From the NCBI RefSeq assembly GCF_053078305.1, contig NZ_CP166879.1: a stretch of 64,000 nt of DNA. One strand, written 5' to 3'. The position numbers and the translations under genes were made by a program. Under the pieces are notes generated by a model that was not told the origin of the DNA, did no database searches, and worked only from the letters and a program-made list of their open reading frames with translations. Shown piece by piece: positions 1 to 35,242 of this stretch (its first letter is position 1; every line of letters starts with the position of its first letter).

Positions 1-935
1 GCCTTTAGCCAGGATTCAATAAAGTCGGCCTGGCTATAGATCTCCGCAAGCTGCTCAATGGTTAACAGAGGTACACGTGCGCTGGCATTGGTGATTATTT
101 CGCTGACAGGCTTTGTCAGATCTTCAAAATCGCTGGCCGCTGTTTGTAAATGCTGCATTTTCTGGGCAGTGCAAATAGCTTTTGCTTTACAGAAGCGGCA
201 CTGTTTTTCTCCAGGTATGAAGTTTTCCAGCGGTAGTGTCTCAATGCCTTCGCATTCAGCAATATTGAGAACAAGGATCGCACTGGTTGCGGCCTCCTGT
301 GCCCGTTCACCGAAAGACTGAAGTTCCTGTACGGTTAACGACCATTCTGAAACGTGGTTGAGCCTTGGCTGGTGAATAAATAATCTTACAGTCTCAAAGT
401 CATACAGCATGCTGAATTGTTCGAGCGCACCCAGAGCATACAGTTGTAGTTGCTCATTTTGTTCTGCATCAATGCGGACGCCTTTGCCATATTTCAGGTC
501 GTGGATTTGTAATTCGTTACCAGCGATGATTATGCCGTCGGCAGTTCCGAAAGATTCTTCCACCCCCGTTATATGTGAGAAATCAACACGTTGTTCAACC
601 AATAGTTCATTATTCTGTGCAAGAGTCCAGACCGTATCAACATACCGGCCAACGGCTTCGACCATTTCATCATCCACCTGTGGGCCAGATGTATCATCAG
701 GATTTTCGCGAAGGGGGTATGAGCCGAGAAACATAGAAACATTGCATCCGGCGTAGTGTTCCGGGTGGCTTTGCCTGTTTCGTAGAACTTTTTCAGCAAG
801 CGCGTGCGCTGCAGTGCCCTCGATTGCAAAAGTTGTTTCTTTATCCGGTTGTGTGGCCTCCAGCGCCAGACTTCCTGGGCAGCGCATCCATCGATGCGCT
901 GATGATGGAGAAAGTTGTGCATGAACGTCTGGCAT
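1..935 (-). CDS. PD-(D/E)XK exonuclease, Cas4-like with C-terminal Cys cluster; C-terminus runs off window start
   Basis: Manual minus-strand translation from ATG at 935-933 gives [23 protein letters not shown]... open to position 1; contains HDLKYGK and [10 protein letters not shown] (C-x2-C-x5-C); absent from ORF track because no stop lies in the window. Confidence 0.55.
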
Positions 936-937
936 GA

Positions 938-1840
938 TTAACCCTCCAGTGCTTTTTCAGCCAGGGTGATTACTTCAGCGAGATTTTCATCCGTTACTTC
1001 ACCAAGTTTCCTGGCTCCCTGTTTTTCCAGAATTGCAATAGCTTCTGCCCGGTAACCCCCTTTTGCTAACTGGAGGATCAACCCTTCAGCTTGTTTGCGT
1101 AGTGCCGCGAAATCAATTGTATGGTCATCTTTGGCGTCATTATTCTGGCTGGAATTTGCTGCGTCTCTGCGTGCAAATTCTTCCTGCAGCTGAAGGTACT
1201 CAACACGGTTGATCTCGATATGGCCTTTTTTAAGCATCTCGTTCAACTTGCGTAAGGTGTGGAGTTCACTGGCTGCTGTGCCGGATACATTTTTGACGTA
1301 AAACGGCCCCGTGCGTTCTCCATCTTTGTTACTGGCCTTTTTCGGCTTAACTTCATCACGCCCATCTGCAGGTGCATCAAGTAGTTGCTCGGCAAAAGCA
1401 CGTCGCTCGCCGATGGTTGGCAGGTCGTCCCAGAACTTAAGAATGTTACGGGACAGGTCCAGAAGAGCGGGTTTATGCAGTGCCCTGGCTCGTTTGACGC
1501 CCTGCAATGCGCTGTCGAGAGCATCAATCTGAACTACTCGTTTATCGCCTTCAGCATCACGGTAGGCAACAGCACGTTGCAGCATGTCTTCTGTGATAGG
1601 GGTGGCTACCGGGTAGAAACCAGCCAGTGCGATAACGTCGCTGAACTCCAGATCATCCAGTGTCATTGCCGCTGACATATTTTCAGTTTCAGTTGCTGTA
1701 TCCCGACATTCCTGCACTCGTGAAATCGTGTCAGGATGCATAACAATACCTGATGCCATTGTGCGGATAAGACGTTCAAGCAGCGCATTATGTTGTGCCA
1801 GAAGTTGATTATTAAGTTCGAGACTGGTTTCTAAACTCAT
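938..1840 (-). CDS. Hypothetical phage early protein (300 aa), immediately upstream of the nuclease; possibly replication or recombination associated
   Basis: ORF track; stop 2 nt before nuclease ATG; no family recognised. Confidence 0.55.
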
Positions 1841-1986
1841 ACTGTGGTCCTCGCAACAAGGAGAATGAAAGTGATGATCAGACCGAGCGCAGTGGCAACG
1901 GCCAGACCGGTCATCAAATCGAAGTTTTTACGGCGATAACGGAGAACATCGCGCCCCGTCAGTCGATAGAGGTGTTCAGGTTTCAT
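1838..1986 (-). CDS. Small predicted membrane protein (49 aa)
   Basis: Manual translation [49 protein letters not shown]; stop overlaps ATG of downstream gene (ATGA). Confidence 0.3.
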
Positions 1987-2102
1987 CGGTTGTATTCCTT
2001 TTTTCATATCGGGGAGCGCGCTGTTGCGAGTGCGCTTTCAGACATAAAAAAGCCCGTCACTTGCGGCGGGCAAAGACTACACACAGCAATTACATGGATG
2101 AT

Positions 2103-2297
2103 TCAGTTGGTATTGTGCGTACGTGGTACCACAAGGTTGAAGCGGACACGCCAGTGCGTTGCAATGGTATGCAGGAAAGCACCACATCCAGGGCAGTGCT
2201 CATAACATTCGTTGATTTGGTATCGTTTTGGCTTTGGTGTCTGAAGCTGTGTTTGGCAAGCAGGGCATTCACCTTTGAGCGGTTTATATGTTTTCAC
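2103..2297 (-). CDS. Small zinc-ribbon-like protein (two CxxC pairs: CPAC and CPGC)
   Basis: ORF track 64 aa; position in early-left operon. Confidence 0.35.
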   Translation of the reverse strand: MKTYKPLKGECPACQTQLQTPKPKRYQINECYEHCPGCGAFLHTIATHWRVRFNLVVPRTHNTN

Positions 2298-2580
2298 GCC
2301 GTTTCCTCATTCAGTTCACTTTGGTGGTTCGGCGGCTTCGACTTGTATCAGTAGGCAGTGCTTCGCCGCACCCCAAAGGGAACTTACTGACCCGTATTGC
2401 CGACATCCTGTCCCGCCACGGTCCCGACGCATGGTTTAGAGTCGCGCCGTTCGACTTGTGGCTAAAGATACAATTTGAGTTGTATTGTGTAAACCACAAA
2501 CGTGGTATTTTGTGGGGTGTGAATACTACTTTATTGATATTTAAGTGAATTTAATTTGTAAGACTTTACAAATGGGGTAA

Positions 2581-2600
2581 GGGAGGCTGTTACGCCTCCC
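2581..2600. terminator. GC-rich hairpin (GGGAGGC / GCCTCCC) 20 nt downstream of repressor stop; possible terminator or attenuator
   Basis: Inverted repeat read directly; flanking U-tract is weak. Confidence 0.3.
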
Positions 2601-2619
2601 GATATTTACGGTGGGAATA

Positions 2620-3243
2620 CTAACGTTTACGGCGGTAAATACGGTGTTCGATCATTACACCTATGATCTGTAAGTTCATATCTGCACTACGAAAAATAGG
2701 GTAATCAGGATTTAGGGGGATTAATTCAAAGTCGTCGATGCCGATTCCTAATGGACGGTATTTTTTAAATGTAGCTTCGTGACCGTCGTTTTTGGCGACA
2801 ACAAACTCCCCTGGTGCAGGACATAGTTCAGGATCGATGATAACAATGTCTCCTTCTTTAAACTCTGGTTGCATGCTGTCGCCATCAATACGTAATGCGA
2901 AGCATGTTTCTGGAATGTCAGAGTCTGCCAAAATATATTCAAATTCCCCTGTCAGATCTGTTATGTCTCTTGCTTCTGTAAGCTCTCCTGCCTGAACGTA
3001 ACTTAATATAGGTATGCGTCTGGTACTTATCTCCGCGAGAGGCATAATATTTTTACCGTTCAGTAGCCAGTCTGGGCTACATTTCAAGGCCTTAGCCAGA
3101 TCCAGAAGATTGCGTGGCTTTCTGGTTCGTCCACTTTCGATGGATTCTATGGATTGTTGGCTAACCCCTGCAGAATTCGCTACTTCCACTTGAGTCATTC
3201 CTAATTCCAAACGACGTGCTTTAAAACGGGCTGCGAGAGACAT
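2620..3243 (-). CDS. CI-like phage repressor (N-terminal HTH, C-terminal S24 LexA-type autopeptidase)
   Basis: HTH signature LGMTQVEVANSAGVSQQSIESIE; S24 motifs GDSM and FKKY; start taken at ATG 3243 (ORF track extends to 3294). Confidence 0.8.
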   Translation of the reverse strand: MSLAARFKARRLELGMTQVEVANSAGVSQQSIESIESGRTRKPRNLLDLAKALKCSPDWLLNGKNIMPLAEISTRRIPILSYVQAGELTEARDITDLTGEFEYILADSDIPETCFALRIDGDSMQPEFKEGDIVIIDPELCPAPGEFVVAKNDGHEATFKKYRPLGIGIDDFELIPLNPDYPIFRSADMNLQIIGVMIEHRIYRRKR

Positions 3244-3363
3244 GGGATTAGTCCTTCTGGGTTGTATTAATGTGTATACCCACATTAAAAACAATTTTTG
3301 TTGTATTTGACAAACCTCATTTGTTGTTGCTAAATACCACTAAAATTGTATGAGGTGAAAGCA
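3244..3363. promoter_or_regulatory. Divergent immunity control region: operator-like palindrome TTAATGTG-N6-CACATTAA (3267-3288), perfect -35 TTGACA (3307-3312), Shine-Dalgarno GAGGTG before cro
   Basis: Read directly from sequence; -10 element is weak. Confidence 0.45.
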
Positions 3364-3576
3364 ATGACCTTAGCGACCCGAGTAAAAGAACGACGTAAAG
3401 AACTCAAAATGACGCAAGTTACGTTGGCTGAGCTCACAGGAGTGAGCCAGCAGGCAATAAACAGAATTGAAAGTGGTGTTATTGCTCGGCCACGTTATCT
3501 TCTTGAAATGTCTATAGCATTGGATTGCGACCCTAATTGGCTGTTGTATGGCTCACAAAACGATAAAAAGGCTTAA
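3364..3576 (+). CDS. Cro-like HTH regulator
   Basis: HTH signature MTQVTLAELTGVSQQAINRIESG; divergent from repressor; start at ATG 3364 with SD. Confidence 0.7.
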   Translation: MTLATRVKERRKELKMTQVTLAELTGVSQQAINRIESGVIARPRYLLEMSIALDCDPNWLLYGSQNDKKA

Positions 3577-3579
3577 CCC

Positions 3580-5772
3580 ATGTCCGATAGCAAACCATGG
3601 GGAGCTACGCCTGATGAGTGGTTTCATTTCGACCTGGTATTGGGGAGAACTGATCATCTTCTCCCAGTTGTATGTAACCCCGGTGCGACCATATCCCCTG
3701 ATAGTAAACTGAAAGCGCTGGGTAAGACGCCAAGTCGCTATAACCGGGACCGCCAGGTCACCGGTATTGCTCAATGGACCGGGTATGTTGTTACTGAGCA
3801 TGATTTTGCCCGCTGGTCGAATGAACCGGATTATGGCATCTGCGTGCGTACAGGCCATGGCTGGCTGGCGCTGGACGGCGATAGCGAAGATGAAGACATT
3901 CAGGCAGATATTCGCAAAACGCTTGTGCAACTTCTGGGGGAGTTGCCGCCGCGACGCTGGCGAGCAAACAGTAATAAGTGTCTGTATCTGCTGGCCGTTG
4001 ATGGTGATTTCCGTAAGCGTATCCATCGCCTGGCGGGGGATATGGGCATTATCGAGTTGCTGGCGAACGGGCAGCAGTTCGTTGCCTGTGGTACGCACAG
4101 CAGCGGCGCGCGTATTGAATGGGACGGTGGTTTGCCGGATGAACCTCCGGCTATTACTGGTGAGCAGCTTGAAACGCTGTGGCAGCGCCTGGCTGAACAA
4201 CTCCCTGTGTCGGTAACCACCGAAGCGGGCAACACGAAGATGCGCGACCGATCAGCATTCACGCCCGGCGCGACGGATGATACAGCTGAATATCTTGATG
4301 CCAATGGCTGGACGCTGCTGGATGGCGCAAATGGTGAACGATATATCCGCTGTCCGTTTGAAGACGGCCACAGTAGCGGGGGCGATCCAACAAGCACAGC
4401 TTATTTTCCTGCGGGAACCGCGGGCTTTGAGCAGGGGCATTTTAAATGCCTGCATGCCAGTTGTGCGCATCGTGATGACGGAGATTTCCTTAATGCCATC
4501 GGGATCCGCAACGACGATTTCGAAGATCTGACCAGCACCGAAGTGGCGGAACCTTTACCGCTGCCTGCTTTCGAGCGTGATAAATGGGGGCGTATCGAGG
4601 CAACCATCAGCAACGCAGCCAAAGCAGTAGTACGCCCTGATTTTGTGGACATCGATATTCGCTTTGACCAGTTCCGCGACGAAATCATGTTTGCCTCTGC
4701 AGGATCCGGACAATGGCGAGCATTCACCGATGCGGATTATGCGCGCCTGCGCATCACGATGGAAAAGCGGGGATTTAAACCTGTTGGTCGTGAACTTATT
4801 CGCGATGTGGTGTTACTTGCAGCCGATGAACAACCATTCGATTCAGCGATTACCTGGCTGAACGGGCTGGAGTGGGATGGCGTGCCGCGCATCGAATGTT
4901 TCTACCATACGCACTTCGGTACAGCCGACACGCCTTATACCCGTGCGGTGTCTATGTACATGTGGACCGCGTTGGCGGGGCGAGTACTGGAGCCAGGCAT
5001 CAAAGCGGATATGGTGCCGATCCTCGTTGGTCCGCAGGGCTGCGGTAAGTCTTCCGGAGTGGAGGCACTGAGCCCTGATCCTGCGTTTTTTACTGAAATC
5101 TCTTTTGCCGAAAAAGACGATGATCTCGCTCGAAAAATGCGTGGTCGGCTGGTGGCAGAGATTGGTGAACTGCGCGGACTTAATACCAAAGAGCTGGAGT
5201 CAATCAAAGCGTTTGTGACGCGTACTCACGAAAACTGGATCCCGAAATACCGGGAGTTCGCCACCCAGTTTCCTCGTCGCCTGGTGTTCGTTGGTACCAC
5301 CAATGAGGACGAATTCCTTGCGGACAAGACTGGTAACCGTCGCTGGCTCCCCGTGGAAGTGTCGAAAGTCGACGTGAAAGCGATAAAAAGAGATCTCCTT
5401 TTACTTTGGGCTGAGGCTCGTGAGGTGTTTCAGCGTCTGGGGGGTATCCAGTTCCGTGAGGCTGAACAACTGGCAGCGAGTGTCCATGAACAGTACACCA
5501 TCAAGGATGCTTGGCTTGAAACGGTAGAGAAATGGCTCGACACGCCAGACCTGATGACTAATGAACTTCCGCGAAATTGCGAATTTTTACGCGCAAGTGA
5601 TGTTTTGCGTGATGCGATTGGGCTAAATCCTGACCGCATCGGAAAACGCGAAGAAATGCGAATTAGTAATGTTTTGCAAAATTGCGGGTATAAGCGTGTC
5701 CAAAGGCGAATTGGGGGGAAAATGACTCGAATTTTTGAGGCGGTGTCCCAACCTGTACCAGCCTCAAAATAG
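3580..5772 (+). CDS. Phage replication primase-helicase (N-terminal primase-polymerase-like region, C-terminal P4/VirE-type NTPase)
   Basis: 730 aa; Walker A GPQGCGKSS; family assignment from recall. Confidence 0.75.
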   Translation: MSDSKPWGATPDEWFHFDLVLGRTDHLLPVVCNPGATISPDSKLKALGKTPSRYNRDRQVTGIAQWTGYVVTEHDFARWSNEPDYGICVRTGHGWLALDGDSEDEDIQADIRKTLVQLLGELPPRRWRANSNKCLYLLAVDGDFRKRIHRLAGDMGIIELLANGQQFVACGTHSSGARIEWDGGLPDEPPAITGEQLETLWQRLAEQLPVSVTTEAGNTKMRDRSAFTPGATDDTAEYLDANGWTLLDGANGERYIRCPFEDGHSSGGDPTSTAYFPAGTAGFEQGHFKCLHASCAHRDDGDFLNAIGIRNDDFEDLTSTEVAEPLPLPAFERDKWGRIEATISNAAKAVVRPDFVDIDIRFDQFRDEIMFASAGSGQWRAFTDADYARLRITMEKRGFKPVGRELIRDVVLLAADEQPFDSAITWLNGLEWDGVPRIECFYHTHFGTADTPYTRAVSMYMWTALAGRVLEPGIKADMVPILVGPQGCGKSSGVEALSPDPAFFTEISFAEKDDDLARKMRGRLVAEIGELRGLNTKELESIKAFVTRTHENWIPKYREFATQFPRRLVFVGTTNEDEFLADKTGNRRWLPVEVSKVDVKAIKRDLLLLWAEAREVFQRLGGIQFREAEQLAASVHEQYTIKDAWLETVEKWLDTPDLMTNELPRNCEFLRASDVLRDAIGLNPDRIGKREEMRISNVLQNCGYKRVQRRIGGKMTRIFEAVSQPVPASK

Positions 5773-5773
5773 A

Positions 5774-5925
5774 GGTTGGTACATTTTAACTAATTGAATT
5801 TAAAGGTCAGTACCAACTGTACCAACTGTACCAACCTAATTACTAAGAACCCCATATATATATATAAGTCGCTTGGGGAAAAGGTTTGAAAAGAGCTGGT
5901 ACAGGTGGGTACAGGTTGGTACAGG
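5774..5925. repeat. Iteron cluster: GTTGGTACA once and TGTACCAAC x3 (5811-5835), AT-rich (TA)n core (5853-5866), inverted GTACAG-type repeats x3 (5896-5924); candidate replication origin
   Basis: Repeats read directly; sits immediately after the primase-helicase stop. Confidence 0.6.
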
Positions 5926-6053
5926 CCGAACAAGGAATTTTTTGCACATAACAGCGTGTAATAAGCGAATCGGAACTGCGTTATCCACACCCACGGATAA
6001 ACAGACGTGGTTCTCAGAAAATTTTTTCGTAGCAAAACGTAGAGGTCAGAGCT

Positions 6054-6476
6054 ATGCGTAATATTCAACAGGTTTTAGAGCGCTGGGGTGGCTGGGCAGC
6101 GAGTGAAGGTGGTAGCGTCTACTTTCCTCCTGTTGCAGCCGGGTTTAAGAATCTGCTACCCGCGACGCAGTCTGGAAGGCTGAAATGCAGTGACAATGAC
6201 GGTCTTATCATCAACTCCGCTATGAGCTGCCTGAAGAAAAAAGATCCGTATCTGTGCACGCTCCTTGAGTGGCATTACGTCCAGGCCATGCCCGTGCGGG
6301 CGATGGGTGAGAAGCTCGGCGTATCTCACACCCACGTTCTGAAGAGGCTTCAGGCGGCAGAGGGATTTATTGACGGTTGCTTAGCCATGCTGGATGTGGT
6401 GCTCGAAATGGATCAGTCGGTTCAGTCAAAGCCTCAGGCTATCAGGACTTTGCGTAGGAGCTGCTCGGCGGCATAA
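6054..6476 (+). CDS. Late-gene antiterminator, Q-like (putative)
   Basis: 140 aa; upstream of lysis cassette; resembles small Q-type antiterminators from recall. Confidence 0.45.
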   Translation: MRNIQQVLERWGGWAASEGGSVYFPPVAAGFKNLLPATQSGRLKCSDNDGLIINSAMSCLKKKDPYLCTLLEWHYVQAMPVRAMGEKLGVSHTHVLKRLQAAEGFIDGCLAMLDVVLEMDQSVQSKPQAIRTLRRSCSAA

Positions 6477-6507
6477 TATCCAGCAATCAATCACGTAAGG
6501 GAACCAG

Positions 6508-6684
6508 ATGGCTCTGATCAGCGTTCGCAACAGATTTGAAAGCTTCATGGAACAGAGGTACCCAGACCTGTCGTTGCAGGTCAAAGGTAATATTGGCGCA
6601 TCAATGAAGGCCCAACTTGGCATCGGATTGAACGAGAATTGTACAGTGAAGATGTTACTTACTGTGATTCAGCAGTTCAGTTGA
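6508..6684 (+). CDS. Small hypothetical protein (58 aa)
   Basis: Manual translation MALISVRNRFESFMEQRYPDL...; SD AAGGGA upstream; stop overlaps next start. Confidence 0.3.
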   Translation: MALISVRNRFESFMEQRYPDLSLQVKGNIGASMKAQLGIGLNENCTVKMLLTVIQQFS

Positions 6685-6848
6685 TGTGGACACTCTTTCA
6701 GGCAGGTGTTCTGGCCGAACGAAGAGCTACCAGCGTTACGCTTCCTGCGCTGAAGGCAAAGCCGGATAGCTTCTACGATGCGGGTTATAACGAAGGTATT
6801 CAGGACTGTCGTAAACATCTGACGGCATCAGGCATCAAGGTAAGATAA
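6684..6848 (+). CDS. Small hypothetical protein (54 aa), translationally coupled to upstream small ORF
   Basis: ATG at 6684 overlaps upstream TGA (TGATG); ORF track lists a longer form from 6639. Confidence 0.3.
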   Translation: MWTLFQAGVLAERRATSVTLPALKAKPDSFYDAGYNEGIQDCRKHLTASGIKVR

Positions 6849-6914
6849 AAAATAGTTGTGGAATTCCAAAAAGCCGATTAGCCTGATATCTGTTGAAAAC
6901 AGTTCATCACGAAG

Positions 6915-6940
6915 AGGCTTCCGCAAGGGGGCCTTTTTTA
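6915..6940 (+). terminator. Rho-independent terminator (stem AGGCTTCC / GGGGGCCT, GCAA loop, T-run)
   Basis: Hairpin plus TTTTT read directly. Confidence 0.5.
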
Positions 6941-7167
6941 TTGCCCCATTCTGGGGAAAAGTTAATAAAACAGGGCTTTCGCTGCGAAAAAACGCTATGC
7001 AGTTTTTGCCCTTTTTTATGCACCTTTTATTCACTCGAATTTCGTCATTCTGGACCACTTAAGTTGATTAAATAGGCCTTTCATCGCAAATCTATTGCGA
7101 GCGGGGATCGTGTGGTTCCTATAACGTACATTATGTTAAATAACTTCCTTTTTTAACAAATTTAACA

Positions 7168-7193
7168 AGGTTCGCTATGGCGAACTTTTTTTT
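7168..7193 (+). terminator. Rho-independent terminator (GTTCGC-TATG-GCGAAC then T8); possible tR'-like terminator ahead of the lysis genes
   Basis: Perfect 6-bp stem and 8 T read directly; tR' role is inference by analogy with lambda. Confidence 0.55.
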
Positions 7194-7294
7194 GTATTCA
7201 GGGCCCACCGAAGGACGGCTCATAACCCAATCCTACGGGCGTATACGCAGGGCCCGCCTTTCAACAACACCCCGTAATGGCGGAGGTGGGAAGT

Positions 7295-7636
7295 ATGAAA
7301 ATGCACAATGCTCCTCATTCCTGGCCTGACTTACTGGAACTCTTACAAAGTTGGTGGCGTGGAGATACGCCGTTGGGCGCAGTGGTTATGTCAATTGTTA
7401 TGGCTGGCTTGCGCATTGCCTATTTTGGCGGTGGCGGCGGCTGGAAACGAAAAACGCTTGAGATTTTGCTCTGTGGTGCTCTGACGCTGACCTTTGCATC
7501 CGCTCTTGAGTATGTTGGATGGCCTAAATCTCTTTCTGTTGCCATTGGTGGTGGTGTTGGGCTGATCGGTGTCGATGCTATTCGTGGGGCTGCAATGCGA
7601 GTAATCGGTAACAAGTTTGGTGGCTCTAAGGAGTAG
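7295..7636 (+). CDS. Holin, class I (three predicted TM segments) with dual-start Met-Lys-Met motif
   Basis: ATG AAA ATG at 7295-7303 after SD GGAGGTGGG; hydrophobic segments; directly upstream of endolysin. Confidence 0.7.
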   Translation: MKMHNAPHSWPDLLELLQSWWRGDTPLGAVVMSIVMAGLRIAYFGGGGGWKRKTLEILLCGALTLTFASALEYVGWPKSLSVAIGGGVGLIGVDAIRGAAMRVIGNKFGGSKE

Positions 7637-7639
7637 TTC

Positions 7640-8116
7640 ATGCAGACACTAAATTCCCAACGTAAAGCTTTCCTGGATATGGTGGCATGGTCAGAAGGAA
7701 CGGATAACGGGCGACAACCGACACGTAATCACGGTTATGACGTTATCGTCGGAGGTGAGTTGTTCACTGATTACTCCGATCACCCTCGCAAACTTGTCAC
7801 GCTAAACCCGAAGCTTAAATCAACAGCCGCAGGCCGGTATCAGCTTCTTTCACGCTGGTGGGATGCCTACCGCAAGCAGCTTGGCCTGAAAGATTTTTCG
7901 CCAGAAAGTCAGGACGCTGTGGCGCTGCAGCAGATTAAAGAGCGTGGCGCTTTACCGATGATTGACCGTGGCGATATTCGTCAGGCAATCGACCGTTGCA
8001 GCAATATCTGGGCGTCGTTACCTGGTGCAGGTTACGGTCAGTATGAACATAAAATCGGTGACCTGATTTCCAGGTTTAAAGATGCTGGTGGGGTGGTAAA
8101 TGAAGCTGACTTATAA
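7640..8116 (+). CDS. R: Endolysin, lambda R-type lytic transglycosylase
   Basis: Near-identical to recalled lambda R N-terminus (QRKAFLDM.AWSEGTDNGRQ.TRNHGYDVIVGGELFTDYSDHPRKLVTLNPKLKST). Confidence 0.9.
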   Translation: MQTLNSQRKAFLDMVAWSEGTDNGRQPTRNHGYDVIVGGELFTDYSDHPRKLVTLNPKLKSTAAGRYQLLSRWWDAYRKQLGLKDFSPESQDAVALQQIKERGALPMIDRGDIRQAIDRCSNIWASLPGAGYGQYEHKIGDLISRFKDAGGVVNEADL

Positions 8117-8624
8117 GATTGTTATCGCGGCATTTTTCTTCTCTGCCTTTGGGGCGCTCGTCTGGTCTGCAAACCATTACCACAGCAAGTATCAGGCAGA
8201 AAAGTTGCGGGCTGATAAAGCGGAAGGTGAAGCTGAATATCAAGGGAAAGTGATAGCTAATCAGGCATTAAACTTCAATCGTTTTAACCAGATAGCAGAA
8301 AAAGCAAGCCGATTAAATTCTCTGGTCGACATCGGTCACGAGAAGACAGTCATCAAATACCGTGAGGTTCTGCTCCGTGAAAAGAACTGTGATTTCCCTG
8401 TTCCTGTTGATATTGCTGTCGGGGTGCTCAACTACGCGAACCGTTTACGCGCCAGCGCATTGCACGCCGATTCCGGGGACATTGACTCAGCCGGTGATCG
8501 TGCCACTACCACCAGAACGTTGACATATTGCCAGGCTGTTCTGTGGATTAACCCACTGTTGGCAGCCATCGAGAAGGCGAATAACCAGTTGGCTGGTGTC
8601 CGACAAATAGAACAGTCCCGGTAA
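8100..8624 (+). CDS. Rz-like i-spanin
   Basis: N-terminal TM segment; follows and overlaps endolysin; contains embedded +1-frame lipoprotein ORF. Confidence 0.65.
   Translation: MKLTYKIVIAAFFFSAFGALVWSANHYHSKYQAEKLRADKAEGEAEYQGKVIANQALNFNRFNQIAEKASRLNSLVDIGHEKTVIKYREVLLREKNCDFPVPVDIAVGVLNYANRLRASALHADSGDIDSAGDRATTTRTLTYCQAVLWINPLLAAIEKANNQLAGVRQIEQSR
8377..8523 (+). CDS. Rz1-like o-spanin lipoprotein embedded in the +1 frame of Rz
   Basis: Manual translation (GTG start assumed) KRTVISLFLLILLSGC... with lipobox LSGC and proline-rich tail PVIVPLPPER; start codon uncertain. Confidence 0.5.
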   Translation: MKRTVISLFLLILLSGCSTTRTVYAPAHCTPIPGTLTQPVIVPLPPER

Positions 8625-8685
8625 TAGCATTACAGAAGCTCTTCCAGGAGGGGCTTCGATAATGACCTGATAACTGGAAAATAAA

Positions 8686-9258
8686 ATGACTAAGAAGCTG
8701 AAAGCAAAACACGAGGTGTTTTGTCGCGAGTTTCTTGTCGATCTGAATGCTACACAAGCAGCTATTCGCGCAGGCTACGTCTCCAGGCGAGCACATGTTA
8801 CGGGGGCTGAACTATACGGTAAACCTGAGATACGCGCCCGTATTAACGAGCTAAAGCAGGAGCGTATTGATCAACTGGGCATTGATGCGAATTATGTGCT
8901 GATGCGACTGGTTGAGATCGACAGGCTCGATGTGGCTGACATCCTGGAGGACGATTTAAGTATTAAGCCTCTGTCTGCGTGGCCGGAATCGTGGCGTCGG
9001 TACCTGAGTGGATTTAACCTCGCTGAAATGTTTGAGGGGCGAGGAGATGACAGAGAAATGGTCGGGATCCTTAAAAAGATTAAGTGGCCTGATAAGGTTA
9101 AAAACCTTGAGTTGCTTGGGCGTCATGTTTCTGTTCAGGCGTTTAAAGACAACGTCAAAAATGAAGTGACTGGCGCTGATGGAGGACCCGTCAGAACAGA
9201 AATTACCAACTTAACGCCGGAGCAGGCTGCAGAAGCGTATAAAAAAATGATGGGCTAA
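8686..9258 (+). CDS. Terminase small subunit (P27-type)
   Basis: 190 aa; position before large terminase; family from recall. Confidence 0.75.
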
Positions 9259-9260
9259 GT

Positions 9261-10883
9261 ATGCCGTTACCATTTCACTTCGATTTTAAACATCCTGATT
9301 ACCAGATGGTTTTTGAATGGCGGATGGAACGCTTACAGCGCATTCGCCAGAACCCTGAAATATTGCCCGTATTGAAGCAGTTTTACCGAACCAATCCGGC
9401 TCAGTTCATCATCGACTGGGGCATGACAACGGACCCGCGTAATATTGATTATGGCCTGCCGGTGACCATTCCGTTTTTACTCTTCCCTAAGCAGGAGGAG
9501 TGGATCCACTGGATTATGGAACGCTGGGGCAATCGGGAGAATGGTATTACCGAAAAATCCCGTGAAATGGGGCTCAGTTGGACCGCGATCGGACTGGCCT
9601 GCTCGCTTTGTCTCTTCAACAAAGAAATGGTTATCGGTTTCGGCTCCCGTAAAGAGGAATACGTCGACAGCACCGGTGACCCGAAAGCATTGTTCTGGAA
9701 GGCACGCAAGTTCGTGGAAACGCTACCTGTAGAGTTTCGCGGTTCGTGGAGCGAGAAGAAGCACGCGCCATATATGCGTGTTGAGTTTCCTGAAACTGGT
9801 GCCGTTATCAAAGGCGAGGCTGGCGATAATATTGGTCGTGGTGACCGTACCACGCTTTATCTGGTTGATGAGGCTGCATTCCTTCAGCGTCCTCTGCTGA
9901 TTGATGCGGCGTTGTCACAAACGACGCGTTGCCGTATCGACCTGAGTTCAGTTAACGGCATGGCTAACCCGTTCGCTCAGAAGCGTCATGGCGGGAAGAT
10001 ACCGGTATTCACATTCCACTGGCGGGATGATCCTCGCAAGGATGAAGAGTGGTATCGCAGGGAATGCGAGAAAATCGATAATCCGGTGGTGGTGGCACAG
10101 GAACTTGATCTGAACTACAGCGCATCAGCGGAAGGCGTTCTGATTCCATCCGAATGGGTACAGGCTGCCGTTGATGCGCATATCAAACTGGGTATCCAGC
10201 CAACAGGCAAACGACTTGGCGCGATGGATGTCGCCGACGAAGGCAGGGACAAAAATGCCTTTTCCACCCGTCATGGCTTCCTCCTGGAAAATGTGCGGGA
10301 ATGGTCCGGTGTGGGCAGCGACATTTATCAGTCCGTCGAGAAGGTTTTCGGCTTTTGCGAACAGGACAACCTCGAAGAGTTTCGCTTTGACGAGGACGGG
10401 CTGGGCGCTGGCGTTCGCGGCGATGCACGCGCTATCAACGAACTGCGTAACGCTGCGCGTCGACCGTCAATACTTGCCACACCGTTTCGAGGTAGTGGCG
10501 CGGTATTTGATCCGGATGATGAAGCTGTTCGCGGGGACAACGGGCAAGCCGCGCGTCTGAACAAGGACTTCTTCGCTAACGCCAAAGCCCAGAGCTGGTG
10601 GCGGTTACGTAAACTTTTTCAGAATACCTGGCGCGCCGTGGTTGAAGGTATGGCTTACAACCCGGACGAAATCATCTCAATCAGCAGTAGCATGGCACTC
10701 AAAGATCAACTCATCATCGAGCTTTCGCAGCCGACCTATTCCATTAATGGTGTGGGAAAAATCGTTATTGATAAACAGCCTGATGGGACCCGGTCGCCAA
10801 ATCTTGCCGACTCGGTGATGATCAACTATGCCCCAATGAATTCAGCCCTGAACATCTGGGAGTTGCTAGGGAGACAGGCCTGA
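9261..10883 (+). CDS. Terminase large subunit
   Basis: 540 aa; position and size; followed by portal. Confidence 0.8.
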
Positions 10884-12349
10884 TGGCACGAAACAAACAA
10901 GCCCTGCGGCGAACTGCGCAGGCCACAGCTGATGGTTATGAGAATTTTATCGCCCGCGTAGGGATGCAGACACCTAACCAGCACTCAGCATCCACCTACC
11001 GGGCTAATTTCACCAGTCGTAACCGCATGCTGGTGGAATGGTCCTATCGTTCTTCCTGGATCATCGGCGAAGCAGTCGATGCTATCCCGGATGATATGAC
11101 CCGCAAAGGCATTCGCATCACTTCGGAAATTGATGCAAAAGATCGTGGCATTCTCGAATCACAACTGGATGAGTTGCAAATCTGGGATGCGCTGAATGAC
11201 GTGCTGAAATGGTCGCGCCTCTACGGCGGCGCGGTGGGTTTCATCATGATTGAGGGGCAGGCACCAATGACCCCGCTGCGACCCGAAACCATCGGTAAGG
11301 GCAAGTTTAAGGGGATTCTCCCGCTCGACCGCTGGATGATTGACCCGGTACTGACCCGCCGCATTAAAGATATGGGGCCGGACCTGGGTAAACCTGAGTT
11401 TTATGATGTGGTGACCACAGCAACGGGAATTCCTGCCTGGCGCATTCATCACAGTCGCCTGATTCGCTTTGATGGCGTCACGCTGCCATTTCAGCAGAAG
11501 ATGACCGAGAACGAATGGGGAATGTCGGTTGTAGAGCGTATCTGGGATCGTCTTACCGCGTTCGACAGCGCTACTGTCGGTGCGGCGCAGCTGGTCTACA
11601 AGGCGCATTTGCGTACCTACAGCGTGGAGAAGCTACGCGAGCTTATCGCACTTGGTGGTCCTGCGTATGAAGCGTTGCTGAAGAATATTGACCTGATTCG
11701 ACAGTTCCAGAGCAATGAAGGCATGACTCTCATGGACTCGCGGGATAAGTTTGAAACCCATCAGTACAGCTTCAGTGGTCTGGATGACATCCTTTCACAG
11801 TTTGCAGAACAGATTAGTGGAGCTGTTGGTATCCCACTGGTGCGGTTGTTCGGACAGTCCCCGAAGGGATTTTCTACCGGCGATGCAGACCTTGCCAACT
11901 ATTACGACCGGGTAAGTTCGTTGCAGGAGAGGCGTTTACGTCTTCCGGTGCGGCGGATACTGGACATCATGCATCGTTCGGAACTTGGCAAGCCGCTCCC
12001 GGATGATTTCACATTTGAGTTTAACCCGCTCTGGCAAATGTCTGATGTCGATCGTTCAACGGTGGCATTAAATACCACCAACGCAATCAGTACAGCGCTG
12101 GGTGATGGTCTGATGACACTGAAAGCTGCTATGACTGATTTGCGCGAAAATTCTGACGTAACCGGCATCGGGGCATCCATTACCGACGAGGACATCGAGA
12201 ATGCCGAAGACGAAGCGCCGCCCGGCATCGGCGAACCTGATGACGAACCGCAGGAACCGTCAGGCGGAAATCCGCTATCGAACCAGCCTACGCAGGATAG
12301 CGCGGGCGGTCGGGGACATCGTAAATGGTCGCTACGATGGTTCAAATGA
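10883..12349 (+). CDS. Portal protein
   Basis: 488 aa with acidic low-complexity C-terminus; follows terminase. Confidence 0.75.
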   Translation: MARNKQALRRTAQATADGYENFIARVGMQTPNQHSASTYRANFTSRNRMLVEWSYRSSWIIGEAVDAIPDDMTRKGIRITSEIDAKDRGILESQLDELQIWDALNDVLKWSRLYGGAVGFIMIEGQAPMTPLRPETIGKGKFKGILPLDRWMIDPVLTRRIKDMGPDLGKPEFYDVVTTATGIPAWRIHHSRLIRFDGVTLPFQQKMTENEWGMSVVERIWDRLTAFDSATVGAAQLVYKAHLRTYSVEKLRELIALGGPAYEALLKNIDLIRQFQSNEGMTLMDSRDKFETHQYSFSGLDDILSQFAEQISGAVGIPLVRLFGQSPKGFSTGDADLANYYDRVSSLQERRLRLPVRRILDIMHRSELGKPLPDDFTFEFNPLWQMSDVDRSTVALNTTNAISTALGDGLMTLKAAMTDLRENSDVTGIGASITDEDIENAEDEAPPGIGEPDDEPQEPSGGNPLSNQPTQDSAGGRGHRKWSLRWFK

Positions 12350-27160: not shown

Positions 27161-27837
27161 GCAAATACACCGAACTAATCACGAACTACCACGCCACCAA
27201 ACCTAAATTTCTTGCGCATGTTGATCTGATGACCCGGCCGCTTATTGATGTTGCGGCTGCCACCAGAGGGCTGATTACTGCATTTGATATTGACTCTGCG
27301 GTTGGTGTGCAACTTGACATTCTGGGATTGTGGATCGGACGTAGCCGTGTTGTCAGCCAGCCTATCTCAGGTGTCTATTTCAGCTGGGATACCGACGGGC
27401 TTGGATATGATCAGGGGGTATGGCAGGGACCATACGATCCTGATTCCGGATACATGTACCTCAGCGATGAAACTTATCGTGTCATTCTTAAAGCGAAGAT
27501 TGCGATTAATAACTGGGATGGACGGAATGATTCGCTTCCGGCAATTCTTGACGCTGCAACAGCAGGATCCGGGCTGCGAATGCAGATAGTCGATAACCAG
27601 GACATGACGATATCGGTCTGGGTCTTTCCTGATACTGATATTTCAGATGTATCGCGTGAGTTAATTGCGGCAATTAAACAGGGGTATCTCACAGTAAAAG
27701 CCGCCGGGGTATGGGCGGGTGGCATTGAAACACCTTCGGTGGAAACCCCATCGGAAGGCTCAAAATTTTTTGGTTTTGATATGGATAACGAATTCATCAG
27801 TGGTTTTGATGTAGGAGCATGGGGAGTATTACTCTGA
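27157..27837 (+). CDS. Tail/baseplate protein (gpI-like)
   Basis: 226 aa; gene order. Confidence 0.5.
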   Translation: MSKYTELITNYHATKPKFLAHVDLMTRPLIDVAAATRGLITAFDIDSAVGVQLDILGLWIGRSRVVSQPISGVYFSWDTDGLGYDQGVWQGPYDPDSGYMYLSDETYRVILKAKIAINNWDGRNDSLPAILDAATAGSGLRMQIVDNQDMTISVWVFPDTDISDVSRELIAAIKQGYLTVKAAGVWAGGIETPSVETPSEGSKFFGFDMDNEFISGFDVGAWGVLL

Positions 27838-28292
27838 TGGCGAAAAATGACTTTAAAGCGTTTGCAACGGATCGAAATGCCAATGTTATATCGCAGGAGG
27901 AATGGGAAGCGTTGCCCGCGCTTTTATCCGGATTTACAGCAGGGAAAGCCTCCAGTGCGCAAGTCAATAAGGTTATTCGGCAGGTCAGCTTTATTGCTGC
28001 AGCTCTGGCCCAGTTTGTAAGTGATAAAACGCAACGGGATGTGCTTGATAATGGTGATCTGCCCGGTTTTGTTGAATTGCTGGGATCGGGGTTTGCTGTT
28101 GAATACCTGAGCCGCAAGAATCCGTTTGGTGATATCAAATCGGATGGCACGGTGAAAACGGCTCTCGAAAACCTTGGTTTGGGAGAAGAGCACAGCGTTA
28201 AGCCGGGTTGTTTCTGCCTGCGTCAGCTTCCGCCCGGCCTGCAATTTCAGCTGAATCAGACTAATGGAAGCCATAGCCGCATCAATCAGTGA
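27837..28292 (+). CDS. Tail fibre, constant N-terminal part, fused in the present orientation to only 34 codons beyond the crossover site
   Basis: ATG 27837 overlaps gpI stop; reads through site at 28162-28187 (N-L-G-L-G-E) and stops at 28290. Confidence 0.6.
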   Translation: MAKNDFKAFATDRNANVISQEEWEALPALLSGFTAGKASSAQVNKVIRQVSFIAAALAQFVSDKTQRDVLDNGDLPGFVELLGSGFAVEYLSRKNPFGDIKSDGTVKTALENLGLGEEHSVKPGCFCLRQLPPGLQFQLNQTNGSHSRINQ

Positions 28293-28715
28293 CTGGCGCC
28301 GTACTTCTGCCGCGTCTACTGCGGCGTTATGCTGTGCCTCAGTGTCGGTCACCCATTTCTCACCATCCCATTTATCGTATGACGTTAACGGGGCGATAGT
28401 GGTTGTATTTTCAGGGTAATCACCCGGAACTGTGATTTCTTTTGATTCTCCTGTTTCGGTGCTATAGACGATTTCACCGCGATGGTCTGGCACATATTCC
28501 CATGAGTTAAAATCTGCAGAACGGCAAATTGCATAACCAGCTTTATATGAGCCAGGAGCATCTAAACAGGAACATGCCGGGATACCGACACCCACAGCAA
28601 GATATTCAGTTGATGTGGAAATATATTCCCGTGTTTCACCATCATAATTATAAACGGTAATGTCTCCGGCCTTTGTGGCGATGAGTTCATTATTTAATAC
28701 AGCTTTACTTATCAT
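27924..28715 (-). CDS. Tail fibre assembly protein (Tfa/U-like); in this orientation the frame reads through the crossover site into antisense of the fibre gene
   Basis: ATG at 28715 overlaps stop of variable fibre cassette (ATGA); native C-terminus probably near the site at 28187. Confidence 0.5.
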   Translation of the reverse strand: MISKAVLNNELIATKAGDITVYNYDGETREYISTSTEYLAVGVGIPACSCLDAPGSYKAGYAICRSADFNSWEYVPDHRGEIVYSTETGESKEITVPGDYPENTTTIAPLTSYDKWDGEKWVTDTEAQHNAAVDAAEVRRQSLIDAAMASISLIQLKLQAGRKLTQAETTRLNAVLFSQTKVFESRFHRAIRFDITKRILAAQVFNSKPRSQQFNKTGQITIIKHIPLRFITYKLGQSCSNKADLPNNLIDLRTGGFPCCKSG

Positions 28716-29196
28716 GCAGCCCTCACAATATAATTAAAGGCGATGTTACGGGAGCGGGTTTCAGATGCTGTGCGAACTGAGCGAGATGCGTCGAATGTCC
28801 AGTTATAAGCGCCATAACCCTCAATAATTTCGGCTTCCTTTAGACCTGTAGATAATACTTGCCCATGTTGACTAAATGGCCCTGAACTAAGTACGTCTCT
28901 AAAAAGCTGGGTACGCCCAAAAGAACCAACAATATTCTGAATTGCATCATTCTGTGCAGATAATAAGTTACGACCAGAGTCAATCCCGCGCCCATCATCC
29001 CAGCCACGAATAAATTCACCGCGTAAATCTGGTAATTTTAATGTTGGGTAAGCCTTTGCCAGATTTGGGTACTTTTCAGAAGAAAATACTGCTCCGTTAC
29101 ATTTTAGCCACCCCATTGGCGGAGTGGCTGAAGGCCACGGAACAGGCACACCAACCGGTAATGCAGAGCCTTCTCCCAAACCAACGTTTATGAAAA
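28162..29196. mobile_element. Invertible DNA segment (about 1 kb) flanked by inverted 26-bp Pin/Gin/Hin-type crossover sites at 28162-28187 and 29171-29196
   Basis: Perfect 14-bp inverted core TTCTCCCAAACCAA (29171-29184) and its reverse complement TTGGTTTGGGAGAA (28174-28187); invertase gene adjacent. Confidence 0.75.
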
Positions 29197-29224
29197 TGCA
29201 GAAATAACGAGCAAATGGCATCAT
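28712..29224 (-). CDS. Variable C-terminal tail-fibre cassette (receptor-binding part) in the silent orientation
   Basis: Same N-V-G-L-G-E junction frame across site 29171-29196 as the constant part; first 12 codons lie outside the segment. Confidence 0.6.
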   Translation of the reverse strand: MMPFARYFCIFINVGLGEGSALPVGVPVPWPSATPPMGWLKCNGAVFSSEKYPNLAKAYPTLKLPDLRGEFIRGWDDGRGIDSGRNLLSAQNDAIQNIVGSFGRTQLFRDVLSSGPFSQHGQVLSTGLKEAEIIEGYGAYNWTFDASRSVRTASETRSRNIAFNYIVRAA

Positions 29225-29250
29225 TCCTGCTTTTGTCAGGGAGATCTACC

Positions 29251-29805
29251 ATGCTTATTGGCTATGTACGCGTATCAACAAATGACCAGAATACCGATCT
29301 ACAACGTAATGCGTTGAACTGTGCAGGATGCGAGCTGATTTTTGAAGACAAGATAAGCGGTACAAAGTCCGAAAGGCCGGGACTGAAAAAACTGCTCAGG
29401 ACATTATCGGCAGGTGACACTCTGGTTGTCTGGAAGCTGGATCGGCTGGGGCGTAGTATGCGGCATCTGGTCATTCTGGTTGAGGAGTTGCGCGAACGTG
29501 GCGTTAATTTTCGCAGCCTGACGGATGCTATTGATACCAGCACACCGATGGGGCGTTTTTTCTTTCATGTGATGGGGGCCCTGGCTGAAATGGAACGAGA
29601 ACTGATTGTTGAACGAACAAAAGCTGGACTGGAAGCTGCTCGCGCACAGGGACGAATTGGTGGACGTCGTCCCAAACTTACACCAGAACAATGGGCGCAG
29701 GCCGGGCGACTAATTGCATCAGGAGTTCCTCGCCAGAAGGTGGCGATCATTTATGATGTTGGCGTATCGACTTTGTATAAGAAGTTTCCGGTCGGAGATA
29801 AATGA
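29251..29805 (+). CDS. pin: Serine DNA invertase, Pin/Gin/Cin/Hin family
   Basis: MLIGYVRVSTNDQ with catalytic Ser; C-terminal HTH; 184 aa; adjacent to crossover site. Confidence 0.9.
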   Translation: MLIGYVRVSTNDQNTDLQRNALNCAGCELIFEDKISGTKSERPGLKKLLRTLSAGDTLVVWKLDRLGRSMRHLVILVEELRERGVNFRSLTDAIDTSTPMGRFFFHVMGALAEMERELIVERTKAGLEAARAQGRIGGRRPKLTPEQWAQAGRLIASGVPRQKVAIIYDVGVSTLYKKFPVGDK

Positions 29806-29885: not shown

Positions 29886-30533
29886 CTATGAAGCTAATTT
29901 GTTTAATTTCATTTGTAGTGACTTTACTTCTTGGTCGATAATGTCGAATCCCTTATTGACAGCATCTCTTAGCTCTGCATCAATATTTTTTATCCCTTGA
30001 GCATAATCTACCATTATATTTATTTTTGCATCATGTAATCTCTTATACATGGTTTTATTTTTGTTATTGTCTGCCATGCCAATAAGGATTTTTTCATAAT
30101 CCTCAATGAGTTTGTTGTTTCCTTTAAATGATTGTATTAATGAGCGTGAATATGTGTATATGTTAATTATTGAGTCTCTAGCAGAATCATTTAGTTTTGC
30201 AATGACATTCGCATTTTGCTCATAGAATGTGAAATTATCATCCCCTACAGGGAATGTGAGAATCAACATTTGTCCCGGTTTTATATTATCAATGTGTGTT
30301 TTCATCCTTTTATTATATAAATTGATTAGGGTGAAAACTTCTCCCTTAACTCCTTTTAATACTGAAAGTTGTAATTCAAGGGATTCTCTTTCTGTCTCTA
30401 CTTTAGACAGCTTAGCTTGTTGGGTAACTCCTTTTAGGGTAAACCATCCGCCAATAAGAGTACCAACTAGAGCTGTGAGGGAGGAGGATAACCATCCAGG
30501 TATGCTATTTAAAAGATTACTAAATTCACTCAT
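29886..30533 (-). CDS. Hypothetical membrane-anchored protein (N-terminal TM helix, coiled-coil-like remainder); prophage cargo
   Basis: ORF track 215 aa; hydrophobic stretch WLSSSLTALVGTLIGGWFTL; strongly AT-rich. Confidence 0.5.
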   Translation of the reverse strand: MSEFSNLLNSIPGWLSSSLTALVGTLIGGWFTLKGVTQQAKLSKVETERESLELQLSVLKGVKGEVFTLINLYNKRMKTHIDNIKPGQMLILTFPVGDDNFTFYEQNANVIAKLNDSARDSIINIYTYSRSLIQSFKGNNKLIEDYEKILIGMADNNKNKTMYKRLHDAKINIMVDYAQGIKNIDAELRDAVNKGFDIIDQEVKSLQMKLNKLAS

Positions 30534-30593
30534 TATAAGTACTCGCTAATATTGAACGATATATATATATCAAATTATTATAAAACTCGTCAG

Positions 30594-30935
30594 CTACTGG
30601 AGAAGGCTACCTGAACTTCGATCTATTCCTGCATCCATATAGTTGATGGTCTTCTGGAGCTCTTCGATTAGGGCAACAGCTTTTGCTCGAGAAATGCATA
30701 TTAGTTGATCCGGAAATTCTTGTAAGGGCCAGTTTGGTATACAGGCCATGTTATCAATGAAGGATGCAGACAAGTAAACTTCATTGGTAACCAGAGAATA
30801 GCTTACCTCAAAATTGGTGAGTTCCGGCAAACTGCTAACGTTTGACTCTTTTCTGCGCATAATATTATCCATGACTGTAATTATGTACAGGTGATGGTCT
30901 TCAATTTCGAAGAGGGAGTCAAGGGGGAGTCTCAA
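30594..30935 (-). CDS. Hypothetical protein, upstream partner of the membrane protein; prophage cargo
   Basis: ORF track 113 aa from TTG; alternative ATG gives about 92 aa; AT-rich. Confidence 0.4.
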   Translation of the reverse strand: MRLPLDSLFEIEDHHLYIITVMDNIMRRKESNVSSLPELTNFEVSYSLVTNEVYLSASFIDNMACIPNWPLQEFPDQLICISRAKAVALIEELQKTINYMDAGIDRSSGSLLQ

Positions 30936-31174
30936 ATGAACCGTTATAGAAAAAGGGGGGGGATCTTTGTGTTGCTGAACTTATGCAAAATTTTTTTGCA
31001 CCATAAATCCAACAACACATTCAATAACACATTGCTGTATCACTATGAAAATAAATGTGTTTTTATTTGATTTCACACATATCACAATTGATGCATTTTT
31101 TAGTGATTAACAGCGCCATAAGGAAACTCTCAAAACAACACAAACCGGGCGGGCATTATACGCGCATTCTTTAC

Positions 31175-32023
31175 TCAGACCAGTTTTTTCACCAGCGCTT
31201 CACTATGACGAATACGTTCTGGTGCCAGTTCCAGATCCTGCTGAATCAGCGCAATGAACAGCAAATCCGTTAACATTCCCTGCGCGTGACAAGCAGAGAT
31301 TGAAGCACTGTTTGTCGCTTGTTCTTCGGCAATGGTATACAGGCAATGAGAAGCACGCTGTTGCAGGGCATTGGGAGTAAAGCCGGTAATCGCCAGCACT
31401 TTTCCGCCCACTCGCAGCATCTCATCTGCCGCCAGGTTTAACTCGCGTCGTACACCGGTGTAAGAAATGGCTAATAACAGATCGTCAGGGGACGACGCCT
31501 GTACGGTAGCGAGTAGCGCATGCATATCGCGCACTGCGGCAGCATTGAAGCCAATCTTCATCAGCTTCCAGGCAAAGTTTTGCGCCACCAGACCCGAAGC
31601 GCCAATACCGGTCAGAATTATCCGCCGCGCAGAGCGCAACATTGTTACGCATTCATGCAGTTTCTCTTCACTATTAACGTTTAGCGTTGCGTACATAGCG
31701 GCAGTATTTTCTTTAATCAGTTTTTCGCCGACCAGCCGTAACGGATCATCACCGCGGATTTGGTTATGAATGGGCACGGAGGGCGATTCCGGCTGGCTTG
31801 CCAGCGCTTCACTCAACGCCAACTTAAGCGCCGGAAAACCTTTATAGCCGAGTTTTTGCGCGAACTTCACGACGCTGGACTGACTGACTCCGGCTTCGTT
31901 GGCCAGTTGCTGAGAGCTTAAATGGCGCGCCGTATCAGGTTGTAGCAGCAGATAATCCGCCAGTTTTTTATCACTCTGGGCAAGCCCCTGGTAACGCTGA
32001 CGGATACGAAGTAAGCCGTTCAT
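31175..32023 (-). CDS. yfhH: RpiR/MurR-family transcriptional regulator YfhH
   Basis: HTH plus SIS-domain sequence; K-12 gene order; start taken at the ATG giving 282 aa. Confidence 0.85.
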   Translation of the reverse strand: MNGLLRIRQRYQGLAQSDKKLADYLLLQPDTARHLSSQQLANEAGVSQSSVVKFAQKLGYKGFPALKLALSEALASQPESPSVPIHNQIRGDDPLRLVGEKLIKENTAAMYATLNVNSEEKLHECVTMLRSARRIILTGIGASGLVAQNFAWKLMKIGFNAAAVRDMHALLATVQASSPDDLLLAISYTGVRRELNLAADEMLRVGGKVLAITGFTPNALQQRASHCLYTIAEEQATNSASISACHAQGMLTDLLFIALIQQDLELAPERIRHSEALVKKLV

Positions 32024-32231
32024 ATCTTTCCTCGCGATGAAATAGTGGCGACAACAGGCAATATGAGACACACGCGAGTGAATTTTATATTCCATTGCCG
32101 CTAATTGCCATGAATTAAAAATTCCAGTTAGCCATGATGCGGTCGATTGTTGCCGGAAAAGTGATGATCTATCTGTTAGGCTATGTAGTAGCGAAAATTA
32201 ATCAGGATGTTTCAGTCCAGAGGAGTATGGT

Positions 32232-35185: not shown

Positions 35186-35242
35186 GACGCCCGTTTCCCC
35201 CCCCCCCTTGGGTACACCGAAAGCTTAGAAGACGAGAGACTT

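Follow-up and report, generated by a model that had tools for sequence, protein, structure and literature searches.

A prophage junction in yfhL, very probably the attR of a SEN34-like phage, with a hypervariable A5G8 tract at its outer edge

The interval considered here covers positions 30936-31174 of the window, by which we mean the whole stretch of 64,000 nucleotides that was analysed. Its left limit is set by the TTG start at 30935 of the longest form of a minus-strand phage ORF, and its right limit by the stop codon of yfhH at 31175. The first complete chromosomal gene to the right is yfhH itself (31175-32023, minus strand; longest ORF 31175-32095, 306 aa), which encodes a MurR/RpiR family regulator and is followed by pgpC (yfhb), tadA, mltF and purL in the order found in K-12. 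The genes to the left belong to a phage and include those for a Pin-type invertase, tail fibre, baseplate, tail and head. Both gene orders were read from the RefSeq annotation of matching complete genomes; the best of these matches the window at 99.7% identity and none is exact.

The position of the junction was determined by alignment. When a 1301-bp query spanning the interval was compared with 5426 complete E. coli genomes, 5425 gave a match, while at least 80% of the query was matched in only 122. In a spread of other genomes, among them K-12 MG1655 and O157:H7, the alignment starts at query base 673 (position 31072 of the window), and the features beneath the match are yfhH and yfhL. In K-12, yfhL lies on the yfhH strand, 55 bp downstream of that gene, and the match begins 48 bp inside it. 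The right 103 bp of the interval are chromosomal and comprise the native 55-bp yfhH-yfhL intergenic region (31120-31174, where the alignment shows no difference from K-12) and yfhL codons 1-16. At the junction the gene is truncated (31063-31119, minus strand): the native start and 16 codons (31119-31072) are followed by phage-derived Ile-Lys-stop, so that the stub reads MALLITKKCINCDMCEIK and then a stop, compared with MALLITKKCINCDMCEPEC at the start of K-12 YfhL. The first-pass annotation had described K-12-like synteny from yfhH to purL, the absence of a prophage here in K-12 and an attachment site somewhere within a 240-bp spacer. The annotations of matching genomes and of K-12, which carries no prophage at the yfhH locus, agree with the first two, and the third is now narrowed to the break at 31072. 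The conserved chromosome had been taken to begin at 31175, whereas the alignments with K-12 and prophage-free strains place its edge at 31072, and the supposed plain spacer contains the 5' part of yfhL, a gene that had been missed.

The overlap region of the attachment site, hereafter the core, occupies 31072-31089 and is the 18-bp sequence TTCACACATATCACAATT. On the minus strand it corresponds to codons 11-16 of yfhL (NCDMCE), which belong to the first cysteine motif of the 4Fe-4S ferredoxin YfhL. The core occurs once in the 64-kb window, where an 18-mer would be expected 0.01 times by chance, because the left end of the prophage lies approximately 9.4 kb before window position 1; the window itself begins inside the phage replication module (DUF2800, LexA-like and VapE genes). 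For the same reason, attL was read in related complete genomes. In DEC5B (E. coli O55:H7), whose right prophage end agrees with the window at 99.7% identity, the genes at the left end are, in order, acpS, shoB, yfhL, tyrosine integrase, HTH regulator, SNF2 helicase and DNA polymerase, and the same arrangement is found in FDAARGOS_1059, which matches window positions 1-11997 at 99.6% identity. The core is identical in the attR of the window, the attL of DEC5B (L003:12986) and of FDAARGOS_1059 (L013:6756), and the attB of K-12 (L002:3001). Its edges are sharp, with exactly 18 common bases and zero identity past them on the phage sides. The comparison with K-12 and with the far end of the prophage, which had been put forward as the way to find a direct repeat, has therefore yielded an exact one in two complete genomes with the same type of prophage; it is known from these related genomes, whose prophage ends are 97-99.7% identical, the left end of the source genome being outside the window. 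The two cores are 41,393 bp apart in DEC5B and 44,405 bp apart in FDAARGOS_1059, and by arithmetic from these genomes the left core of the source strain should stand approximately 9.4 kb before position 1. Its attL would be expected to read TTCACACATATCACAATT and then, rightward, AATACAGCGTTTAGTAATTAG, with the integrase gene beyond.

That integrase is a 465-aa ORF located 215 bp from attL in DEC5B and FDAARGOS_1059, outside the window, and it matches the tyrosine integrase family PF00589 of Pfam (30.5 bits, cutoff 27.1) and phrog_1 (E = 1.6e-26). On the other side of the core, the P arm of the attachment site extends over 30963-31071 and carries repeated motifs. One of them, AACACATT, is present in direct orientation at 31014-31021 and 31026-31033 and inverted at 31054-31061, and one more copy lies in the P' arm near int. 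In the attP that was reconstructed from the phage side of attR, the core and the phage side of attL, this makes four copies on both strands and in both arms; of 2000 shuffles that preserved dinucleotides, a single one brought any 8-mer to that number. All sampled prophages keep the two direct copies, and the inverted copy at 31054-31061 is not conserved in a sister lineage. A related motif, CAGCAACAC, has one copy per arm, the P-arm copy being inverted at 30969-30977. It is plausible that both repeats are arm-type integrase sites. A search of the phage collection found no free-phage genome with this attP, and the integrase/attL region gave zero megablast matches there.

Beyond the P arm lies a small minus-strand gene for 88 aa (30594-30860; 267 bp in RefSeq) that belongs to phrog_17793 (PHROG E = 1.3e-43). 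The longest ORF at this place runs from the TTG start to 30594 (30594-30935, 113 aa), and the PHROG match covers residues 26-113 of it; this match, the RefSeq annotation and the homologue in Salmonella phage SEN34 all give ATG 30860 as the true start. In the circular genome of SEN34, the homologous gene SEN34_31 (88 aa; L012:3976-4242) is located directly beside a 380-bp non-coding region and the integrase gene. Owing to this position and homology, 30594-30860 is to be regarded as a conserved phage gene and not as cargo. Searches of Pfam, PHROGs and PADLOC gave no match for the 88-aa ORF beyond phrog_17793. The gene stands beside attP and divergent from int both in the E. coli prophages and in SEN34, and this position suggests a possible role in integration, excision or lysogeny.

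The sequence left of the junction had been called phage cargo as a whole. It is indeed made up of phage genes, but the label fits the next ORF (29886-30533, minus strand) and not the one that adjoins the tract. The 215-aa product of this variable gene has a hydrophobic N-terminal segment followed by a coiled part rich in Lys and Asn; Pfam, PHROGs and PADLOC returned no family match for it, and the kilobase 30001-31000 has the lowest GC content of the window (0.357). Homology with ECSC054 and vB_EcoM-606R2 begins only at window position 30579; 606R2 has another gene in the slot, and SEN34 one for an O-acetyltransferase. Because it sits in a variable cargo slot between the invertase and phrog_17793 genes, the 215-aa ORF is a candidate for a function in superinfection exclusion or defence. 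A (TA)n run, tatatatatatat, at 30563-30575 adjoins the onset of homology (approximately 30579) with the differently loaded sister prophages and may be a recombination boundary of the slot.

The affiliation of the phage is indicated by its large terminase, which over 540 aa shares 95.4% identity with its counterpart in Salmonella phage SEN34 (genus Brunovirus, NC_028699) and is 99.3% identical to those of three E. coli records, vB_EcoM-606R2 and relatives. These records (vB_EcoM-606R2, -611R5 and -683R1) were considered as free phages and rejected; they are prophage predictions and not packaged genomes, since they include the host genes yfhH, pgpC and tadA. With SEN34 the prophage has in common the order phrog_17793, attP, int on the circular genome, a phrog_17793 gene that is 79% identical in DNA and occupies the same place beside attP and int, a similar order of the tail and baseplate modules, and a cargo slot between the tail-fibre genes and phrog_17793. 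On the other hand, the integrase of SEN34 has 393 aa compared with 465 aa in the prophage, its attP arms carry AGTACA-type repeats unlike those described above, it lacks the G tract, and its replication module consists of RecT/exonuclease genes where the prophage has DNA polymerase, VapE and DUF2800 genes. Judged by terminase identity and gene order in the sequences compared, the prophage is SEN34-like, with replication and integration modules that differ from those of SEN34.

At the outer edge of the attachment-site arm, the interval contains a mononucleotide tract, A5G8 (30950-30962 on the plus strand; C8T5 on the strand of the neighbouring genes), consisting of A5 at 30950-30954 and G8 at 30955-30962 in the context TATAGAAAAAGGGGGGGGATCTTTG. 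The tract belongs to the non-coding part of the phage DNA; the core is 110 bp away, and the phrog_17793 start follows 95 nt downstream. The G8 run had been recognised in the first-pass annotation at these positions but was placed immediately upstream of the first cargo ORF, while the distance is 95 nt and the ATG at 30860 belongs to a conserved phage gene. A single G8 is not remarkable in itself, because approximately 0.5 runs of at least eight G or C would be expected in the 64-kb window by extrapolation from shorter runs; the window has two, the G8 and a C11 at 35197.

What distinguishes the tract is its variation, which was followed across isolates as the first-pass annotation had advised. 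Tract sequences were retrieved from 16 of the 123 genomes that carry this prophage end. Thirteen of the 16 have A3-5 followed by G5-G10 or by interrupted runs, with almost invariant flanks, and the other three (97-3250, BCE049 and 606R2) form a divergent lineage that reads AAAGGGGAGCTC, with only G4. The alleles seen are A5G6, A5G7, A5G8, A5G9, A5G10, A4G7, A4G8, A3G5, A3G6, A3G7, A3G8, A3G4AG5 and A3G5AG2, at least 13 among 17 sampled sequences whose flanks are approximately 98-100% identical, so this is the most variable spot among the sampled isolates. Among approximately 100 matches listed of the 123 genomes, a 66-bp segment around the tract was matched over 60-68 bp. Two O55:H7 strains are one G apart (G6 in DEC5B, G7 in CB9615). 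Equal counts were found within re-sequenced or clonal genomes, namely H10407 and SEC470, three of BH100, 97-3250 and 97_3250, and UTAK-2, -4 and -6, and the exact allele of the window is common to 18 complete genomes among the matches listed. The shorter neighbouring runs, G5 at 30923 and T7 at 30991, show occasional single-base indels. The suspicion that the tract is prone to slippage is thus upheld on an evolutionary scale, as its length differs between lineages. It would have grown by slippage from a short G4. For typing these prophages on a fine scale, the variable A/G tract could be used as a marker.

We consider it very probable that the interval holds the attR of a temperate SEN34-like (Brunovirus-like) myovirus prophage of approximately 40-44 kb in yfhL, and that the A5G8 tract is a slippage-prone homopolymer, most likely a neutral one. 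From the arrangement of the three sites we infer that strand exchange would take place within the 18-bp core, by site-specific recombination through the tyrosine integrase, into the 5' part of the ferredoxin gene yfhL. The product on the attR side would be the native yfhL promoter with its start codon and 16 codons entering phage DNA and meeting a stop two codons later. On the attL side, the phage DNA that follows the core on its right imitates the start of yfhL imperfectly (AATACAGCGTTTAGTAATTAGTAAAGACAT), and the gene there reads MSLLITKRCINCDMCEPEC; the K-12 probe aligns for 20 bases beyond the core at reduced identity. At attL, yfhL is annotated as a full-length gene of 86 aa with an altered N-terminus (MSLLITKR... 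in place of MALLITKK...). The imitation restores the 86-aa YfhL frame beside the integrase gene, and the chimeric gene would presumably be expressed from phage signals. Because the 5' end of yfhL is replaced and not the 3' end, the phage must also supply a start codon and expression signals. Integration of this kind exchanges the first 16 codons of yfhL, and presumably its expression signals, without destroying the gene. That yfhL is kept on lysogeny, since the phage replaces its first 16 codons, amends the simple reading of a "disrupted gene" given in a survey paper.

The alternative that deserves most attention concerns the tract and not the junction. Slippage in it might alter the spacing inside a promoter or between a promoter and an activator site, or the 5' leader of the leftward transcript, so that the tract would act as a functional contingency switch under which phrog_17793 and the membrane-anchored 215-aa cargo protein are phase-varied; we consider this unlikely. 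The run exceeds the length of approximately seven from which a mononucleotide run can slip (G8 here, G5-G10 in relatives), it is polymorphic among closely related isolates, with many length alleles in nearly invariant DNA (the two O55:H7 strains included), and it stands upstream of two co-oriented genes on their transcriptional side. A hexamer found by hand, TATAAC at 30948-30943 on the minus strand, would even place C8T5 in the spacer of a promoter, but its -35 element matches at only 2 of 6 positions, and a sigma-70 scan of 30500-31300 found neither a minus-strand promoter nor a terminator. The tract lies outside the real ORF (start 30860), whose ATG is 95 nt away. Moreover, it is not a conserved regulatory feature, because a long tract is missing before this gene in the divergent lineage and in SEN34. 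The persistence of interrupted alleles (G4AG5, G5AG2) argues for decay rather than maintenance, the counts are stable in re-sequenced strains, and the neighbouring short runs vary too.

Homopolymer phase variation is unusual in E. coli. Like the contingency loci of Neisseria and Haemophilus and the poly-C of Bordetella fim promoters, the tract has a G/C run of at least eight upstream of genes and is polymorphic between isolates. It differs from them in that neither a promoter nor a reading frame is demonstrably changed by it, the tract is not kept in relatives, and it is stable in re-sequenced strains. In a narrower form, a genuine slippage switch would have been gained by one lineage of yfhL-integrating SEN34-like prophages and would tune a leftward transcript that enters the prophage after starting in the displaced yfhL/yfhH promoter region or at a weak promoter of the phage. 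This is quite improbable; if true, phase variation of phrog_17793 and of the low-GC 215-aa protein would constitute a homopolymer contingency locus in E. coli on a prophage end. Transcription driven by the host might read through the tract into phrog_17793 and the cargo gene, because yfhH and the yfhL stub are oriented towards the prophage and the scan revealed no terminator. The tract is most likely a neutral mutational hotspot, its neutrality being inferred from the absence of evidence for an effect.

Other readings of the DNA around the tract were tried. A plus-strand ORF that spans it (30891-31070) was rejected as coding sequence, because the length alleles of relatives would frameshift it. 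On inspection of the sequence, a G-quadruplex or hairpin was also rejected: the G runs are separated by too much sequence (27-nt loop), and the strand that carries them has no C run to pair with. A search of 30400-31400 against Rfam gave no family and a single chance miRNA hit (E = 0.77).

Homopolymer miscalling in long-read or 454 assemblies is very unlikely to be the main source of the length variation, over a tract that is in truth uniform. Homopolymers are a classic error site of several sequencing platforms, and the window itself has a C11 in the purL leader, where 5,411 of 5,425 genomes match at 95-99% with lengths that imply C6-C7. The tract alleles, however, differ also by G-to-A interruptions and by the length of the A run, the same counts recur in independent assemblies of one clone or strain, and the G8 allele is common to 18 complete genomes from different laboratories. 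Part of the length differences could nevertheless be assembly error. The C11 run itself (35197-35207) lies just downstream of a PurR box, ACGCAAACGGTTTCGT, and a TATAAT hexamer, and has no exact match among complete E. coli genomes; among the matches listed, nearly all imply C7, those of O157 strains C6 and APEC O1 C10. It is either a real expansion of the 5' UTR or a homopolymer error of the source assembly. This oddity calls for caution on exact run lengths, although the G8 allele is independently attested.

As for the junction, the empty site is precise. A 251-bp K-12 probe that spans the core aligns without a break in 5266 of 5426 complete genomes and is split in those that carry the element, and the flanks of occupied genomes rejoin exactly via the 18-bp core. 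The yfhL site is occupied in approximately 159 genomes (approximately 3%). A phage right end like that of the window is present in 123 genomes, once in each and always in the chromosome, and the remaining occupied genomes presumably carry other elements. The possibility that the junction is the edge of a rearrangement or degraded island, with a coincidental 18-bp identity, is extremely improbable: in its favour is that the window has one end only, but the empty-site counts and the exact rejoining through the core effectively refute it in the genomes compared, chance alone would give an 18-mer only 0.01 times in 64 kb, the full set of phage genes is there together with an integrase, and other phage types, Stx2b prophages among them, use yfhL too.

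As an integration site for phages, yfhL is already published, and the junction is a known kind of feature at a known site. The gene is listed among those hit by prophage integration in the part of Bobay et al. (2013; PMC3603311) that deals with it, Stx2b prophages are placed in yfhL in the corresponding passages of two other papers (PMC10675304; PMC12029490), and SEN34-like prophages have been noted in E. coli O26:H11 (PMC5592225). The host gene and the chromosomal neighbourhood in these passages on the yfhL hotspot (PMC3603311; PMC10675304; PMC12029490) are the same as here. Those passages treat yfhL as disrupted or as an insertion site and give no core, whereas here the frame is restored at attL; the prophage described here is a SEN34-like myovirus with no stx in the window, and not a lambdoid Stx phage. 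The core is now supplied for a site that is occupied in approximately 3% of complete E. coli genomes and also used by Stx2b prophages, and the exact prophage boundary (31072-31089) is fixed for annotating the source genome.

The att junctions of lambda type in coding genes, such as those of phage 21 and e14 in icd, likewise have one short core sequence that recurs unchanged at the two ends and in the empty site (rule summarised in PMC7192596). In both cases a tyrosine integrase is found at one end, repeated motifs lie on both arms, the target is a highly conserved coding sequence, and a phage imitation of the displaced gene end keeps the frame. It is more usually the 3' end of the gene that is replaced, while here it is the 5' end, and the displaced native start of the gene persists as an 18-codon stub beside yfhH. 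The current understanding of phage integration is unchanged by these observations.

Elsewhere in the prophage, a segment at 27800-29805 carries opposed tail-fibre and tail-fibre-assembly ORFs that adjoin the gene of the Pin-type serine DNA invertase (29251-29805, plus strand; Pfam Resolvase E = 1.1e-51 and HTH_7; annotated as pinE in DEC5B), the enzyme of a tail-fibre switching module. This arrangement suggests an invertible host-range segment, perhaps comparable to those of Mu (Gin) and e14 (Pin). In the left arm of the sister prophage in FDAARGOS_1059 (L013:11593-12354, outside the window), a gene for a TIR-domain protein and a frameshifted gene for an ANR-family regulator lie between the VRR-NUC and DNA polymerase genes. 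At this place, DEC5B carries YfbU-family and hypothetical genes instead, and this region looks like a second variable slot, possibly related to defence.
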